Source of the DNA: Ignavibacteriota bacterium
GTDB lineage: Bacteria > Bacteroidota > Ignavibacteria > Palsa-1295
Assembly: GCA_963787835.1 (NCBI GenBank)
Contig: CAWBEI010000002.1
Location: 1,120,001-1,184,000 of the forward strand
DNA length: 64,000 nt
Reading direction: 5' to 3'
Every line of letters starts with the position of its first letter. Position 1 is the stretch's first letter. A program made the translations under genes and the position numbers. Shown here piece by piece: positions 51,774 through 61,351 of this stretch. The notes under the pieces are model-generated. The model ran no database searches. It saw only the letters and a program-made list of their open reading frames with translations, and was not told the DNA's origin.

Positions 51774-54218
51774 TTATGCCGACACTTTCGTGGCTGTTTT
51801 TTCTTTTATCGAGAAATCAGCGTAGGTTTTTTGTGTAGCTTCACAGAGGCTTTCGAGCGTATCAGCTTTGAGCCCGATTGATGAGTCAAAGGATGTCAAA
51901 AGGTGCTCGGTTGCCAGTTCTTTACGAGTAAGAATCATTACCGGAATTACCTGGCTTGTCTTCCGAGCCTTCATTATTTTTCGTATCATTGTTCCGATAA
52001 GCCGTTTTTCTGAATCGTCGAGACTGGTTTTGAGTGTTGCGAAAAAGCAAGCCGCTTCAGGAAATTCCGACATTATAAATGCAATTTTATCAACATCCTC
52101 ATTCGTAAAATTATTAGTCGTCTTGCACTCTCCAAAAATAAGTCTTGTTTCTTCTCTCAAGTAGTTGTAGCGCATGAAGAGACCGAGATCAGCTTCTATT
52201 TCTTTCAGGGCATTCTCCTTCTTTGCTACAAAGCTCAACAAGGGAGTAGTAGACGCACCTGAATGAAGGAAGTGAGAGAAAAAGCGAAGCGTTAGCAGAA
52301 CTGTGTAGCTTCCGTGAGCCGCACCAGGCGACCGGAACGGTCCAAGCAACCTATACGACCATGGCAATGAGCCCGGCCGTTCATCCATGAGATTCAGCAA
52401 ACCCCCACAAACGGGACAAGGAACTTCCGACCCGATCTCGGTTCGCGGAAGCCACGTAGATTTTGAACAAGTTGTGCATTTGGGGGTTACACCTAGTTCA
52501 AGTATTCTTCTGTGAATCAGCTGTTTAAGAACATCGTCGGGTTCGTGAATTATTGAGTAGCCCGGAGCAATTTTGTTAAGTTGCTCGATCAACCCGGCAC
52601 GAGGAATGACACTAACTTCATATCCAAATTGGCGTTCCATTTGTGTTAACCTGGAATCAAGTTCCTTTATTTTTGAGGCCACGTTTCTGTTTTTTCGCAG
52701 CGCGATCCTTAACTCACTCCTAGGGCCTGCAAGGACACGCGTGGGTTTAACAGAATTGATGAGCATCGCAATGAGGTCATAATTTGCTAAAAGATTCAAG
52801 CCATAAATCCCGCCGAGTTGTGACAACATTGCTTCTGTTGTCTTGCCAGCATCAGAAAGTGCAATTTGCCATCCCTGTTCCTCAAGCCACTCTGTAAAAA
52901 TAGTTTTTGCATGCGGAATCATCATTCGAGCTGATTCTCCTCGCTGTCCAAGGAGCGTCAGTCCACGTTTACTAAATCGCCATTTAAATAGATCATAGCG
53001 GTCAATTGCCCTTACCATCTTCAATCCACCCTCTGGCATTACCTCAGCAAGCAACTCATCAGACCCTTCAATTCTCATTGAAATATCATTTGCAAACTGC
53101 TGTCTTGCCCATCCAAACAACTTAAACTCTGGTTGAAGTGGTGAGAACACGAAGGATTGTAAAGAAGAATGAACCCTTCGAGTTACTTCTCCACAACTCA
53201 ATGGTTTCACTTCAACGTGATCATATGGTCTAGCCCAATCGTCCCAAATTCTTGGCAGATGAGTGTGAACGACTTTAGCAGTTTCTCTGTCGTCAAACTT
53301 TTCATAGAACTCTTTGAATACTTCGAATTGAACGCTTCGCGCTTTCATTATATTGACTTCTTTTCGTCGAACCATATTGAAGAAGCTACCTACGAAGCTC
53401 GATTTTATCAACTCCTTACAGAAATCAACGACATTTGGATGCCTTGTCGATTGAATTGGGATTGGTGTAATGAACCAGCCAGCTGCTCTGAGATTCCAGT
53501 AATCAATAACATCACCGGCGTTCGATGCGTCTAACAAGAAAATTGCTCTTGTTTTATCATTCACATCAAGCAAAGGAGTAAATAGAGATGATATTCGTCG
53601 TGGAAAATATAGATCACTCGGTGCAAGTAGATCTACGTAATTCGAGAGATTGCAATCCAGTTTTTCGATTCTTAGGTCTTCTCCATAGCGAGACAACAAA
53701 GTTGATTCGATGTGAGGGGGCAAAGTTCCGAATACTGCAGAAAAAAATAAGCCGAAATTCTTCGGTATCTTAGGTATGCAAACACGTATCGGTTCACTTC
53801 TTATAAACTTAAACTCTGTATCCCGCCAATGATCAAGGATCTCAAAAAGGCCAGCACCATATTCAGGCGCACCGTAGCTCTTTACATGTTGCAATATTCC
53901 TGAATTTCTAATTACTCTCCTATTCGCGATAGTATTTACTCCTACGCTATCGAAATTAACCAAATAATCAGGGTCAAATGCATTAATAATACCATTAAAA
54001 AACTTTTTTGAAGTAGGTTTTAAAACTGGATGGCTCGAATAATTATCAGGTACTCGTTTGTAATTTGGGATTATGGGACATGCTGCACCACCCCAAAGAA
54101 ATGTTGCGGTTTCTATAGCCTCCTTCACCTGTTTATTTTTTTTGGGATCAACTATGAACCCAAACTTAAGAGGTCTTAGGGTTAAATCTATTGACGCGGT
54201 TACCAAATTTTCTTGCAT
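51774..54218 (-). CDS. Large hypothetical protein with Zn-ribbon and C-terminal PD-(D/E)xK-like motif
   Basis: Probable start ATG 54218 (814 aa); CTTC...CPVC; EIEAD...IFGECK; visibly AT-rich. Confidence 0.75.
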   Translation of the reverse strand: MQENLVTASIDLTLRPLKFGFIVDPKKNKQVKEAIETATFLWGGAACPIIPNYKRVPDNYSSHPVLKPTSKKFFNGIINAFDPDYLVNFDSVGVNTIANRRVIRNSGILQHVKSYGAPEYGAGLFEILDHWRDTEFKFIRSEPIRVCIPKIPKNFGLFFSAVFGTLPPHIESTLLSRYGEDLRIEKLDCNLSNYVDLLAPSDLYFPRRISSLFTPLLDVNDKTRAIFLLDASNAGDVIDYWNLRAAGWFITPIPIQSTRHPNVVDFCKELIKSSFVGSFFNMVRRKEVNIMKARSVQFEVFKEFYEKFDDRETAKVVHTHLPRIWDDWARPYDHVEVKPLSCGEVTRRVHSSLQSFVFSPLQPEFKLFGWARQQFANDISMRIEGSDELLAEVMPEGGLKMVRAIDRYDLFKWRFSKRGLTLLGQRGESARMMIPHAKTIFTEWLEEQGWQIALSDAGKTTEAMLSQLGGIYGLNLLANYDLIAMLINSVKPTRVLAGPRSELRIALRKNRNVASKIKELDSRLTQMERQFGYEVSVIPRAGLIEQLNKIAPGYSIIHEPDDVLKQLIHRRILELGVTPKCTTCSKSTWLPRTEIGSEVPCPVCGGLLNLMDERPGSLPWSYRLLGPFRSPGAAHGSYTVLLTLRFFSHFLHSGASTTPLLSFVAKKENALKEIEADLGLFMRYNYLREETRLIFGECKTTNNFTNEDVDKIAFIMSEFPEAACFFATLKTSLDDSEKRLIGTMIRKIMKARKTSQVIPVMILTRKELATEHLLTSFDSSIGLKADTLESLCEATQKTYADFSIKEKTATKVSA

Positions 54219-54265
54219 ACAAATCTGAAACACAATCCTGAAATGAATCATTAGCTCATCCCATG

Positions 54266-54419
54266 CCCACCAGGGGTTCCGCTTCGCTCCACACTTGGCT
54301 GTTGACATGTCACCCCCTTCGGGTTTTAGCATTCGAAGAACCACTAACCCCAGACTCACGTCCGGGGCTACAAATATGTCGTCCCTCCGGGACTGGTCGG
54401 GCTGGAAGCGCCGACCTAC
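54266..54419. repeat. Cluster of REP-like hairpins (two degenerate direct units plus a GTAG-ended hairpin)
   Basis: ...ggctgttgacatgtcacccccttcgggtt / ...ggggctacaaatatgtcgtccctccgggact / ggtcgggctggaagcgccgacctac. Confidence 0.6.
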
Positions 54420-54797
54420 GCGAAAAATAATTTCGGATTTCCCTTGCATTTGGGTTTTGGATGTGGTATATTAGGAAGTACATTAATAGGCACCAATTTC
54501 TATAAGAATAGCATTAACAATGGTTTTCATTATGAACGAGTTCTTTGGGAAAGCGGATTTTGGATATTTGTTGGAACAAATGGGCGAAATTGGCCTGGAA
54601 ACGAAGGTGGGTCGGGAACTCACAAGAAAGAAAAATGGCACCTATTTCTTGGAGAACAGCATTCTCGCATTAACTTATCCACAATTTGCATCAAAACGGA
54701 ACTAAGGAAAGAGCAAGATGCTTATTGAGCCGCCCAAAAGACCAGGATGGTCGGCCAGGTTGGTCGAAGGATGGTCGGGGCTAATCCAAAATTTATC

Positions 54798-57633: not shown

Positions 57634-58365
57634 TTAGTAGATGGGGTGAGCCGACAATTCCGCGATAAAGACTACTATGCCTATATCGATTAGGACACCG
57701 ATTACAAGCCCTATCGTCTGGCCCGTGTTGCTCTTCTCGATAAACGTTGTATTGTAAAAATCGGTGTTTGTCAATGTGAAGAGCTTTTGCTGGTCTGAAA
57801 AGTGAAGGATCGCTTTTACAGGAACATTATTGGAATCGAGGGTGGATTTTAACTCGGTCAATGAATTTACGTTCCCATTCACATGAAAGTATGACATGCC
57901 TGAGACGGGCAGATCTTGGACCACGCCCTTCTGTGAAGCGCTCATGGCGATCCCGTCTGGGGTGAAACCACGGAATTGACCGGTAAAATATTCATATCCT
58001 TTTAAGAGGGTTTCGATGGAATCACCGATTTGTAATGGTATTACGCGTGAACTACGAGGCTTTGTCTCGAACGAAGTCCAGCGTTCACGATACTCGGAGT
58101 CCGGCTCATCCGTGTAGCCCTCGAATGTCGCATAGTGAACGGTTGAGTCATTATATCGGATTCGAGCGAATCGCTTGGTGTTGCTGTTAACGTCGCTAAA
58201 GATGGGCTTGGTAAACGCAGCAGTGGTATCAGAGCGCCAATTTGCATAATCATTTATATTATCTATCGATGCTCCAATCGAAGAAAGGAGGAATGTGCAG
58301 CCCTCGGCTGAAAATGCCGCGATTGCGAGGAGGAGAAAGAGGGAAGTGGTATGTGGGTGTTTCAT
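57634..58365 (-). CDS. Hypothetical lipoprotein-like membrane protein (paralog of neighbour)
   Basis: Leader with EGC, C-terminal TM helix; shares RFARI.YNDS.V.YATFE with 58378 gene. Confidence 0.75.
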   Translation of the reverse strand: MKHPHTTSLFLLLAIAAFSAEGCTFLLSSIGASIDNINDYANWRSDTTAAFTKPIFSDVNSNTKRFARIRYNDSTVHYATFEGYTDEPDSEYRERWTSFETKPRSSRVIPLQIGDSIETLLKGYEYFTGQFRGFTPDGIAMSASQKGVVQDLPVSGMSYFHVNGNVNSLTELKSTLDSNNVPVKAILHFSDQQKLFTLTNTDFYNTTFIEKSNTGQTIGLVIGVLIDIGIVVFIAELSAHPIY

Positions 58366-58377
58366 TTTGGCTTTTAG

Positions 58378-59172
58378 TTATTTATGTGCTATATAATCGA
58401 TGCCATTCCCGCCACTAAAATTTGGTCCGCCGCCCCAGTTCCAATTGCCGCCAAATGAAAACTTGGGAGGATTAGTTACCAGTTCTATAATGATCGCGAG
58501 ATCTATGATCGCCCCGATCGCCGCCCCGATCGCTCCTGCATTACTGTGAGTGAATTTTACGTTAATAAAATCGCTGTTTGTAAGAGTGAATGGCTTTTGC
58601 TGCTGGTCGGTAAAGCGAAGAATGGCACGTACCGGCACATCGCTGGAATCGTACATCGATTTCAGTGTATCCAACGAATTTCCTTTTCCAGTTACACCGG
58701 CATAGTCCAAATCTGTTAGTGGCAAATACTTATGTCGATCGTTCTGGGCAACTTTCAGATAGATTCCCTCCGGGTAGTAAGCTTCGAAGATGCCGGCCTG
58801 TTTGTTGAACCAACTGTATTTATTGAGTTCGATCGAATCCCCAATGTTAATTGGGATCGTGGATGAATTAGGATGCTTTGTAGCAAACAAGGTCCACTGT
58901 GTACGGTAAGCCGAGTCTGTCTCATCCGAGTAGTCCTCGAATGTTGCGTATCCTACGTTCGAGTCGTTATATTGGATGCGAGCGAATCGCCCGGTGTTAC
59001 CGTTTGCGTCGTGAAAAAGCGGCTGGGTAAAGGTCGCTGTGGTATCGTGGGCGTGGTTATTTACGTTATCAATAGCGGCACCGATCCCCAAGCCAATGAG
59101 GGTGCAGCCATTGCAGGAAAATGCTGCGATCGCAAGGAGAAGGAAGAGGTAAATGATGTTTGCTTGTTTCAT
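58378..59172 (-). CDS. Hypothetical lipoprotein-like membrane protein (paralog of neighbour)
   Basis: Leader with NGC, glycine-zipper-like segments at both ends; start ATG 59172 assumed. Confidence 0.75.
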   Translation of the reverse strand: MKQANIIYLFLLLAIAAFSCNGCTLIGLGIGAAIDNVNNHAHDTTATFTQPLFHDANGNTGRFARIQYNDSNVGYATFEDYSDETDSAYRTQWTLFATKHPNSSTIPINIGDSIELNKYSWFNKQAGIFEAYYPEGIYLKVAQNDRHKYLPLTDLDYAGVTGKGNSLDTLKSMYDSSDVPVRAILRFTDQQQKPFTLTNSDFINVKFTHSNAGAIGAAIGAIIDLAIIIELVTNPPKFSFGGNWNWGGGPNFSGGNGIDYIAHK

Positions 59173-59308
59173 GTTCGTTGTCGTTAGTTTAGGCTCCAAA
59201 AATACCTTATATGGCAGGGGGACTTGTCACCGAATTGTCATAAAGTTGTAAAAGAATTTATATGCAAATTCACCCTTTCATTGGTATTGTGTCGTATTTT
59301 TGCACCTA

Positions 59309-60034
59309 ATGCATAGCAATTCTAAATCCCGGTATAAACGGATTCTGCTCAAGCTTTCGGGAGAGGCCCTGATGGGCGAGCGAGAATATGGCATCGATCC
59401 CAAAGTATTAGAACAATTTGCTGCCGATGTCGTGGAAAGCGCAGCCTTGGGTGTAGAGATCGGGATCGTGGTTGGAGGGGGTAATATTTTTCGTGGCGTG
59501 TCAGGAAGCACGGAAGGCATCAGCCGTGTGCAGGGCGACCAGATGGGAATGCTCGCCACAATGATCAATGCGTTGGCCTTGCAGAATGCGCTGGAGTCTG
59601 CCGGACTTTATAGCCGGCTCATGTCCGCAATCTCGATGACGCAATTTGCGGAGCCATTCATTCGGCGCAAAGCGATTCGGCATTTAGAAAAAGGCCGAGT
59701 CGTTATTTTTGGATGCGGTACTGGCAATCCATTTTTCACAACCGATACCGCTGCTGCACTTCGTGCAGTCGAGATCGATGCTGATGCTGTATTCAAAGGC
59801 ACGCGCGTCGATGGCATTTACGATTCCGATCCGGAAAAGAATGCCGATGCCCGGCACATTCCATCGATCAGTTACATGGAAGTGCTCCATCAGGGACTTC
59901 GCATCATGGATCTGACAGCCATCACCCTTTGCCAGGAAAATAATCTGCCTATCGTAGTTTTTAATATGAACAGAAAAGGGAATTTACAGCGAGTGCTAAC
60001 CGAGGACGGCGTCGGAAGTATTGTGACGGTGTGA
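59309..60034 (+). CDS. pyrH: UMP kinase
   Basis: [37 protein letters not shown]. Confidence 0.98.
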
Positions 60035-60041
60035 AGGAATT

Positions 60042-60621
60042 CTGAACCTGGATTTATGGGATGAATGGGATGTTTGAGATAAAGCTATGACTGAGAAAGA
60101 TCTCCCTGACTCCGAGATCACTCGAAAAATTATTGGATGCGCTATGAAAGTGCATACCGAATTAGGCAACGGGTTTCAGGAATTTATTTATCAGGCTGGT
60201 TTGGAAATCGAATTTCGAGATCAAGGGATAGAGTACGAGAGAGAGTTTGAAATGCCTATTTATTACAAAGCTCAATTATTAGGCACTCGACGCATAGATT
60301 TTTTAGTTAATCGAAATATCTCCGTTGAACTCAAAGCGATTATTGAGCTCGGTGACGTGCATATTGCCCAAGCTTTGAATTATCTTGAAGCATACAATAT
60401 TCAGACCGGATTACTCATCAATTTTGGTTCAAAACGCCTTACATTTCACCGATTGCGCAACAAAAAGTATCGGCCCACCATTTGAACTGGGATGTTTGGG
60501 ATGAATGGGATGTTTAGTATAAGGTGGATAGGATAATCACACTCTGAGGAATTAAACTGCCTCATCGAAAGCATAGACCATTATCCCAAACATCCCATTC
60601 ATCCCATAAATCCAGGTTCAG
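60042..60621. mobile_element. Inverted-repeat-bounded cassette carrying a GxxExxY gene (putative mobile/intervening element)
   Basis: 41-bp inverted repeats 60042-60082 and 60581-60621 (40/41 match); third degenerate direct copy 60483-60522. Confidence 0.6.
60087..60485 (+). CDS. GxxExxY protein (PD-(D/E)xK nuclease superfamily)
   Basis: GFQEFIY motif, RIDFLV....VELKA, Q..NYL, GLLINFG. Confidence 0.92.
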   Translation: MTEKDLPDSEITRKIIGCAMKVHTELGNGFQEFIYQAGLEIEFRDQGIEYEREFEMPIYYKAQLLGTRRIDFLVNRNISVELKAIIELGDVHIAQALNYLEAYNIQTGLLINFGSKRLTFHRLRNKKYRPTI

Positions 60622-60627
60622 GAGCCT

Positions 60628-61191
60628 ATGAATACCATCAAAGAAATCACCGCCGACTGCGAGAACCGCATGTCAAAAGCCGTTGAAAATGTACGGCATG
60701 AACTCGCTAAAATTCGCACAGGCCGCGCCTCGACCGCGCTGCTGGATGCCGTGAAAGTGGAAGCCTACGGCAGCGAAACGCCGCTCAATCAGGTTGGGAA
60801 CCTGAGTGTGAGCGATGCGCATACGATCTCGATCCAGGTGTGGGATAAAGGGTTGATGGGTGCAGTAGAGAAGGCAATTCGCAATGCTAATCTCGGATTA
60901 AATCCCATGAACGACGGGCAGATGATTCGTGTGCCAATGCCACCGCTGACCGAAGAGCGGCGAGTGGAGATATCCAAGCTCGTCAAAAAATTTGGCGAGG
61001 AAGGAAAGATCGCCGTCCGAAACGTTCGCCGCGATGCGATGGAACATTTGAAGAAAGCGGAAAAAGCTGACCACTTTAGCGAGGACGACCGCAAGCGCGG
61101 CGAGGATGAAGTTCAGAAAAAGACCGACCATCAGATCAAGGAGATCGATAGTCTCGTTGCGACCAAAGAAAAAGAAGTGATGGCGGTATAA
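60628..61191 (+). CDS. frr: Ribosome recycling factor
   Basis: IRTGRA, LGLNP.NDG, PPLTEERR, VRNVRRDA. Confidence 0.98.
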   Translation: MNTIKEITADCENRMSKAVENVRHELAKIRTGRASTALLDAVKVEAYGSETPLNQVGNLSVSDAHTISIQVWDKGLMGAVEKAIRNANLGLNPMNDGQMIRVPMPPLTEERRVEISKLVKKFGEEGKIAVRNVRRDAMEHLKKAEKADHFSEDDRKRGEDEVQKKTDHQIKEIDSLVATKEKEVMAV

Positions 61192-61197
61192 TTAATA

Positions 61198-61336
61198 CTG
61201 TCATTCCAAGCGTAGTTTGTCGAGCGAAAGCGAGACAAACGAAGTCGAGGAATCTTTTTCTGAAGTAGCATAGAACCAGATTCCTCGACTCCGAAAATCA
61301 TCGCTTCGCTCTGATTTTCTCTGCTCGGAATGACAG
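61198..61336. repeat. CGTC/TGTC-type palindromic repeat element
   Basis: CTGTCATTCC...AGTCGAGGAATCT / AGATTCCTCGACT...GGAATGACAG. Confidence 0.85.
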
Positions 61337-61351
61337 AATAATATAAATTCA

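Follow-up and report, generated by a model that had tools for sequence, protein, structure and literature searches.

Why should a gene for a small nuclease stand between two inverted repeats in the middle of a housekeeping operon? The question is raised by a stretch of 64,000 nucleotides (the window) from an Ignavibacteriota bacterium, in which a GxxExxY gene separates pyrH from frr. The first-pass annotation of this DNA proposed a nuclease with its cognate repeat, arranged much as REP sequences are with RAYT enzymes, and a third repeat arm that might act as a switch. As far as comparative sequence analysis reaches, the layout is supported by the flanking repeats, by arm subtypes that track the protein and by alleles without the gene. 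The features are collected in Table 1. Below, G000 is the window genome, G001-G014 are its congeners, and L294 and L303 are metagenome loci.

Table 1. Features of the pyrH-frr junction, in window coordinates.
Feature	Position	Strand	Remarks
pyrH (UMP kinase), host gene	59300..60034	+	TIGR02075; stop 7 nt upstream of left arm
Left arm L	60042..60082	+	CTGAAC terminal motif and GAT units with 9-bp period; type A; matrix score 56.5
GxxExxY gene, 132 aa	60087..60485	+	Predicted minimal Cas4/RecB-like PD-(D/E)xK fold; TIGR04256, PF13366
Third arm L'	60483..60522	+	Copy of the arm family; its TGA ends the nuclease ORF; L303 copy longer by one 9-nt unit
L'-R spacer	60523..60580	.	Decayed extra units, then unique sequence
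Right arm R	60581..60621	-	40/41 complementary to L
frr (ribosome recycling factor), host gene	60628..61191	+	TIGR00496; ATG 6 nt beyond right arm

The arrangement described in the first-pass annotation is confirmed. The two 41-nt inverted arms pair as claimed, and a direct copy with 83% identity supplies the TGA that ends the nuclease reading frame. The gap between the left arm and the nuclease ATG is 4 nt. The right arm overlaps the first two letters of an AGGAG (60620-60624), which lies 3 nt ahead of the frr ATG. No transposase is present, the sole open reading frame (ORF) between the arms being the PF13366 match. The near-perfect agreement of L and R is probably the result of conversion between the arms, because L has a letter otherwise typical of R arms. 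The RNA fold predicted for the whole region is far beyond chance (z -8.6), and no promoter or terminator above chance was found at the locus. The spacer between L' and R is about 90% identical in L303 and missing in G006; its 54-nt core has no second match in the genome.

The surroundings hold other unusual sequences. A separate palindromic element lies directly 3' of frr at 61195-61339, with arms at 61195-61211/61323-61339 and 61240-61261/61272-61293. We take it to resemble the CGTC-type REPs, and its relatives are nested within many gene-less pairs of GxxExxY arms. Between tsf and pyrH, two tandem paralogous lipoprotein-like ORFs on the minus strand (57634-59199), without a Pfam match, break the usual tsf-pyrH linkage. 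Another minus-strand ORF of 891 aa (51774-54449) also has no Pfam match; by eye, its end carries a zinc-ribbon-like and a nuclease-like motif.

The protein belongs clearly to the GxxExxY family. It matches TIGR04256 with an E-value of 1.3e-38 (132 bits, cut-off 35) and PF13366 (PDDEXK_3) with 126 bits (cut-off 22). In 142 aligned sequences E32, Y35, D71, K83 and N112 are invariant, and E81, H92, Q95 and Y99 are at least 90% conserved. A structure predicted from a single sequence reached a pLDDT of only 33; the model used here was built on the alignment of the 142 sequences and reached 92.5. The best Foldseek match to this model is the Cas4 protein SSO0001 (PDB 4ic1, E 7.7e-5). In a wide structure search SSO0001 aligned over 101 residues (Z 7.7, rmsd 3.2), tied with other PD-(D/E)xK folds, and look-alike structures in the Atlas scored only 0.75. 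A sequence search found no solved structure among the relatives. The conserved core (E32, D71, E81/K83) and the structure matches agree with the PD-(D/E)xK fold named in the first-pass annotation. A separate DNA-binding domain is not obvious in a protein of this size. Four of six pairs of pyrH-frr gene copies are unsaturated and have dN/dS values of 0.06-0.13; the other two are saturated. The gene and its arms are under purifying selection. At least 7,994 members were counted among 7,999 scored candidates, about 8,000 clusters across phyla being a lower bound for the family. The account of PF13366 in PMC3424549 lists its function as unknown and notes multiple transfers.

The arms are not confined to the cassette. 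A matrix trained on strict matches finds 99 arm copies in the 3.57-Mb genome and none in the reversed genome, which served as control. The consensus has GTCTGAAC as its terminal motif, after which GAT(T) recurs with a period of 9 bp. For 46 of the 99 arms there is an inward-facing partner within 1.5 kb (0 in the control), and the remaining arms are single. Paired arms without a gene form shells, which measure about 80-290 bp. Inward arms bracket each of the three GxxExxY paralogs in the genome; they are of subtype A around the window copy and of subtype B around the other two. Some 95 arms are distant from any copy of the gene. To call the repeat cassette-specific would be too narrow, since the arms form a genome-wide family. 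The strict arm pattern is present in all 15 genus genomes, in 4 of 10 other family members and in 1 of 16 more distant genomes.

Among the 27 shells of this genome, 16 have spacers long enough for analysis; the 11 shorter ones were left out. These 16 spacers are unique except for nested REP-type palindromes, and none has a GxxExxY profile match. With no common interior and no visible gene remnants in these spacers, the shells are therefore not simple replicating MITEs. Arms can also enclose foreign cargo. At C2:202183-202748 of G000 (L245), type-B arms bracket, in place of the nuclease, a 144-aa ORF which is presumably GNAT-like. A different arrangement occurs at C10:982000-988500 of G006 (L195), where four near-identical type-C shells each lie in a repeated gene 3' end, which we assume to be restriction-modification-like, and alternate with unrelated cargo genes. 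An integron-like array was considered for these four shells and rejected, as they ride in the larger repeated gene end.

Arms of the same kind accompany the gene in other organisms. Flanks were sufficient at 108 of 110 homologous loci, five of which duplicate others. An inverted repeat score of at least 36 is reached by 57 of the 108, compared with 2 in the best of 20 shuffles. After loci were added and duplicates removed, both GTCTGAAC-type arms were found at 85 of 124 homologs with at least 50% identity, in hosts labelled as Bacteroidota, Patescibacteria, Leptospiraceae, Calditrichaeota and others. None of 25 more distant homologs has this type; most have units of 9-10 nt of the form CACAGAG, CACGGAT or CGCAAAG. 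A quick tree was built from 145 intact proteins, without 4 rows that were broken or short. Along it the hand-defined arm subtype changes 13 times, against at least 32 times in 200 shuffles. The survey of flanks that the first-pass annotation suggested thus yields consistent repeats beside close homologs and a subtype that follows the protein tree. Read from sequences, such tracking shows co-inheritance only, and not recognition.

The arms themselves carry a hint of their role. Mismatches between L and R lie between the GATT units, while the terminal motif and the GATT units are conserved. Mismatches compatible with G.U pairing are not enriched (57 versus 68, p 0.37), and selection on an RNA duplex was rejected for want of such a bias. 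Because of both features, the arms would be better understood as an array of protein-binding sites than as a selected RNA duplex.

Arms also have a preferred position. By a crude ORF caller, 84 of the 99 are intergenic. A gene ends on the outer side of 60, in 38 of these within -8..+6 of the arm, and 14 arms supply the stop codon. For unpaired arms in gaps with at least 40 nt to spare, 14 of 20 abut a stop codon where 3.3 are expected. Among 68 full elements, 59 of 66 follow a co-directional gene and 52 of 66 precede one. The TGA of the arm is the stop of the upstream gene in 15 of 59 elements, and in 20 of 52 the downstream gene starts 1-4 nt after the right arm. GTAG REPs likewise supply stop codons to flanking ORFs, as described in PMC3733652. 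Targeting of stop codons and outward trimming under selection cannot be told apart from the arm positions here.

One model for these observations is an element that is driven by its nuclease and completed by repair, which homes to its own junction and seeds shells elsewhere. We consider it about evenly balanced between true and false. In this model, the pyrH-frr cassette is one member of a dispersed repeat family, and one that carries the gene. The putative Cas4/RecB-like nuclease would bind the 9-bp-phased arms in DNA and cut or trim there. Host repair would then copy the cassette into the same gene junction of a related species, and the same process would seed gene-less arm pairs at other gene ends. 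Short-homology recombination repair together with outward trimming would leave arms that end at stop and start codons. Under the model the nuclease would thus be active, the arms would be its binding sites, the spread would be its work, and repair with trimming would set the arm ends.

An example for the proposed homing is the history of the pyrH-frr junction. The gene is kept there in 4 of 15 genus genomes (G000, G001, G006 and G007), which are scattered on a tree of pyrH and frr. Among the 11 gene-less congeners, seven have clear or decayed arms (three of them with a nested REP-type palindrome), two have traces only and two have nothing. None of 26 other relatives has the gene at this site. 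Empty alleles, which the first-pass annotation had suggested looking for, are therefore found among the congeners, and the locus is not fixed across the clade. Of 80 metagenome frr loci, two have the gene: L294 with two arms, and L303 with the same three-arm allele as the window. A search of metagenomes with a degenerate frr-start pattern gave no match. Arm scores are 51-60 in the six gene-bearing alleles, and arms are decayed in the gene-less ones except for the left arm of G012.

The comparison of G000 with L303 is the clearest. The host of L303 is no closer to G000 than several gene-less species are (frr 92%, pyrH 91%). The synonymous difference is 0.34 for the nuclease compared with 0.61 for pyrH, 0.68 for frr and 0.60 for PAP2 (Fisher p 6e-6). 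Synonymous sites in the nuclease are not simply slow, because the difference reaches 0.68-0.88 in deeper pairs. Identity is 0.91-0.93 inside the cassette and 0.76-0.89 outside, and the shared tract stops within about 20 nt of the host genes. This one clear pair shows lateral transfer into the same pyrH-frr junction. The cassette is younger than the housekeeping genes around it, and for this reason it likely spreads between species into the same junction. The contrast is weak for G000 and G006 (p 0.03, with 9 of 65 background genes lower), the deeper pairs are synonymously saturated, and copies at the liv and trmH junctions show no contrast between gene and flanks. Any co-conversion at pyrH-frr would extend over at most about 20 nt. 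Between G000 and G002, divergence is lowered in livK and the 5' part of livH, a comparison made without a control for those genes.

Several candidates for more direct evidence were rejected. A relative that seemed to be an empty site has both arms, with 70 unrelated letters between them. In the low-depth contigs available, neither a clean empty and filled pair from a single species nor an excised circle was seen, and there was no credible joint of a REPIN-style doublet excision. A joint of 60071 to 60583 in X1 (one contig, with a side of 30 letters) resembled an excision; its loose ends match the flanks of other arm sites, so it is explained as another shell whose arms map onto L and R. A contig from an RNA library over 60299-60703 was rejected as evidence of transcription.

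Single cases at this junction add detail. In G001 (L039) the nuclease ORF continues across the right arm and its stop lies at the beginning of frr, so that translation of the two genes would be coupled. L296 and L298, from two relatives at a greater distance (frr 76%), each have a single arm that provides the stop of pyrH; since an arm does so again there, the pyrH stop may be a recurrent target.

Other junctions have a similarly patchy record. Of 15 congeners, 4 keep the gene at the liv junction and 3 at the trmH junction. In sister species the same places are taken by REP-type palindromes, shells of 7-mers, arms of other subtypes or a cassette that is four-helix-bundle-like, these family names being our own attributions. 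At another common site, the copies of G014 and G006 have a pN of 0.21 and different arms, which suggests separate arrivals. Before the trmH-like gene (L267-L283), at least four unrelated palindrome families occur in different congeners, and in G007 this junction contains what we take to be the 3' end of a RAYT-like ORF. At C2:1157230-1157592 of G000 (L244), an ORF of 120 aa, presumably four-helix-bundle-like, is flanked on both sides by arrays of 7-mers in inverted orientation. The corresponding junction of G006 contains one GxxExxY-type arm, and a cassette similar to L244 is present in G028 at the liv junction. The L244 type is a parallel gene-plus-arm system that competes for the same slots.

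The number of arms in a genome follows the presence of the cognate gene. Counted with the exact type-A pattern, which was derived from G000, the genomes that keep the gene at pyrH-frr have 11, 13, 5 and 20 arms elsewhere (own arms subtracted). The gene-less congeners have 5, 0, 0, 4, 1, 5, 0, 1, 0, 0 and 0. The medians are 12 and 0 (p 0.003, with kin not independent), and three sister contrasts on the pyrH and frr tree all point in the same direction. Types B and C show the same trend with exceptions: G009 has 47 and G006 has 26 type-B arms with no type-B gene found. The two congeners without any GxxExxY match, G011 (98% complete) and G013 (85%), have the fewest arms, 5 and 4. Among 60 arms of G006, 20 have no alignable flank in G000, 25 are common to both and 15 are absent in G000. 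At these 15 filled and empty sites no target duplication is visible, in genomes that are only about 80-90% identical. Often, the stop and one or two codons before it have given way to the arm.

Another model is domestication. Gene and arms would be kept mainly for the benefit of the host, the arms acting for instance at stop and start junctions on transcripts or DNA with the protein processing them, and the transfers would be ordinary recombination between congeners. Copies at the same site do form clades and persist to synonymous saturation, and the neighbouring genes are mostly co-directional, as counted above. Orthologous solo arms are conserved at 78% even at variable positions, compared with 55% for non-orthologous arms (20 pairs), which fits a host function as well. 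The gene is also rare on plasmids, with 8 cases among 72,556, and none of 50,697 phage records has it, a distribution like that given for RAYTs in PMC5581495. No type-A arms were found in viral contigs; eight viral loci do have a GxxExxY gene, three of them with clear inverted arms. Against domestication stand the absence of the gene from pyrH-frr in 11 of 15 congeners, the failure to find any copy in 2 of 15, and the unrelated palindromes in the same junctions of sister species. The lack of a G.U signature speaks against RNA pairing, and the tract shared by G000 and L303 stops at the cassette edges. Domestication is thus improbable, while being the alternative that survives best.

Proteins other than the nuclease could also move the arms. 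If an enzyme acting in trans, such as a Y1/HUH transposase, were responsible, GxxExxY would be a passenger. An ORF at C2:353291-353758 of G000 has a HIHIL motif, which we take to be HUH-like, and a type-C arm is about 300 bp away; arms also bracket the GNAT-like ORF, and REP-type palindromes are nested in shells. This model is distinctly less probable than domestication. Across phyla, the arms agree in family and subtype with the place of their gene on the GxxExxY tree, the number of consensus arms follows the cognate gene, and the catalytic residues of GxxExxY are invariant. Furthermore, single arms are tandem 9-bp units and not self-palindromic hairpins, with complementarity only between paired arms.

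The third arm invites a different explanation. As the first-pass annotation had it, L and L' would compete for R in the mRNA, and the outcome would decide whether the nuclease and frr are translated, or the ORF would be looped out at the RNA level. A local L':R hairpin of -55 kcal/mol is possible and would form quickly. The three-arm allele is common to G000, L303 and a contig of RNA run X7 (about 96% identity) that spans it, and 26 of 85 elements have an extra same-sense arm 3' of the gene. Energies favour the other pairing: the duplex is -68 kcal/mol for L:R against -47 for L':R, and the whole fold prefers L:R by about 44 kcal/mol. R is paired in both folds, so that the frr start region is not released and the third arm cannot switch frr. 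The AGGAG occurs in only two of the six gene-bearing alleles (G000 and L303), and its spacing of 3 nt from the ATG is poor in a genome where SD-like words peak at 5-9 nt. L' is missing in G001, G006, G007 and L294, intact in L303, and decayed by the loss of one 9-nt unit in G000. A translational switch is therefore very improbable.

Third arms instead behave like arms at any gene end. Of the 23 whose position could be fixed, 18 begin at -21..+13 relative to the nuclease stop, and 5 provide that stop. Because it follows this rule, is absent in other alleles and does not release frr, the third arm probably arrived later, as an insertion without a gene at the stop codon of the nuclease itself. 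Only the DNA version of the proposed loop-out is left standing, as a possible event that was not seen. As a direct repeat of L, the third arm would offer a route to gene loss: recombination of L with L' would leave a shell of about 140 bp, the size found in G002 and G013.

An addiction or defence module, in which repeat RNA or DNA neutralises a toxic nuclease as in type III toxin-antitoxin systems, would suit a small nuclease under strong purifying selection with intact arms beside it, but it is scarcely credible given the frequent clean loss in sister species, the roughly 95 arms away from any gene copy and the absence of a partner ORF inside the arms.

The nuclease-driven model has a wider form, in which a hitherto undescribed class of mobile elements, homing to the same operon junction in different species and planting arm pairs exactly at stop codons, has GxxExxY proteins as its only enzymes. 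This is a tentative proposal, in which we have rather less faith than in the local mechanism. If it is true, a Cas4-like nuclease of about 130 aa reads a phased 9-bp array across at least 8,000 clusters, and a very large protein family listed as unknown gains a function. One inverted motif would end the upstream gene with its TGA and lead into the downstream start, so that the operon keeps working. A third enzyme class, after HUH and DDE, would stand behind dispersed bacterial repeats, and intergenic repeats that rewrite the stop codons and translation-start regions of essential operons would be explained. New from the pyrH-frr junction are a series of alleles, a transfer into one and the same junction, an arm number that goes with the cognate gene, a rule for the position of arms at stop codons, and the dismissal of the switch; a three-arm switch adds little to this significance.

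No description of a GxxExxY gene-plus-arm system was found in the literature searched, which did not cover subscription journals and supplements, and Rfam gave only generic hairpin matches far under the gathering cut-off. The protein has a likeness to Cas4 and RecB-like nucleases in its best structural match and in a D..ExK motif with a QxxxY-type helix, as judged on the predicted model. Cas4 proteins carry a four-cysteine Fe-S cluster. With a single cysteine in its 132 aa, the present protein has no such cluster, and unlike Cas4 it is located between repeat arms in housekeeping operons.

Insertion sequences (IS) with inverted repeats, MITEs, and Tn7-like ends with iterated binding sites offer another comparison. 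Here too a terminal motif is followed by repeated subterminal units, and gene-bearing and gene-less forms coexist. In contrast to IS elements and MITEs, there is no DDE, DEDD, HUH or serine transposase between the arms, and the gene-less copies have no common interior.

Free-standing homing endonucleases are encoded by intergenic genes that are patchy among relatives, under purifying selection and younger than their flanks. The cassette resembles them in all of these features, and it is younger than its flanks at one site (G000-L303), a contrast that is weak or absent in other pairs. It differs from them in that its terminal arms are dispersed genome-wide, similar paralogs occupy unrelated junctions, and the transferred tract hardly enters the flanks.

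The TAACTGA heptamer repeats described in PMC4679880 are also short-period repeats that abut start and stop codons, are unexplained and are patchy across phyla. They are 7-nt direct repeats, and no nuclease is named in the accessible text of that paper, whereas the present arms are inverted, have 9-nt units and accompany a cognate gene.

The closest likeness is to REPIN-RAYT systems, REPtrons and TIRtrons. In these, inverted copies of a repeat surround a small nuclease gene, the same repeat is scattered between genes as doublets and singlets, and several enzyme and repeat groups share a genome (outlined in PMC3116915 and PMC3733652). Long vertical residence and rarity on plasmids are further shared features, as summarised in PMC5581495. 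The dispersed family of 99 arms, the 46 with inward partners against 0 in the control, and the bracketing of 3 of 3 paralogs correspond to this pattern. The differences lie in the parts. A RAYT is an HUH Y1 enzyme, while the present protein is PD-(D/E)xK by profile and fold; REPs are short palindromes with a GTAG- or CGTC-type tag, while the present arms are not palindromes and consist of a terminal motif with an array of 9-bp units behind it. Unlike in REPIN-RAYT systems, each spacer here is unique, two arms directly enclose the gene within operons, and lateral transfer into the same junction is seen. On the features compared, the GxxExxY element works like a REPIN-RAYT system and partly like a free-standing homing endonuclease, and it belongs neither to the RAYTs, nor to the IS elements and MITEs, nor to Cas4.
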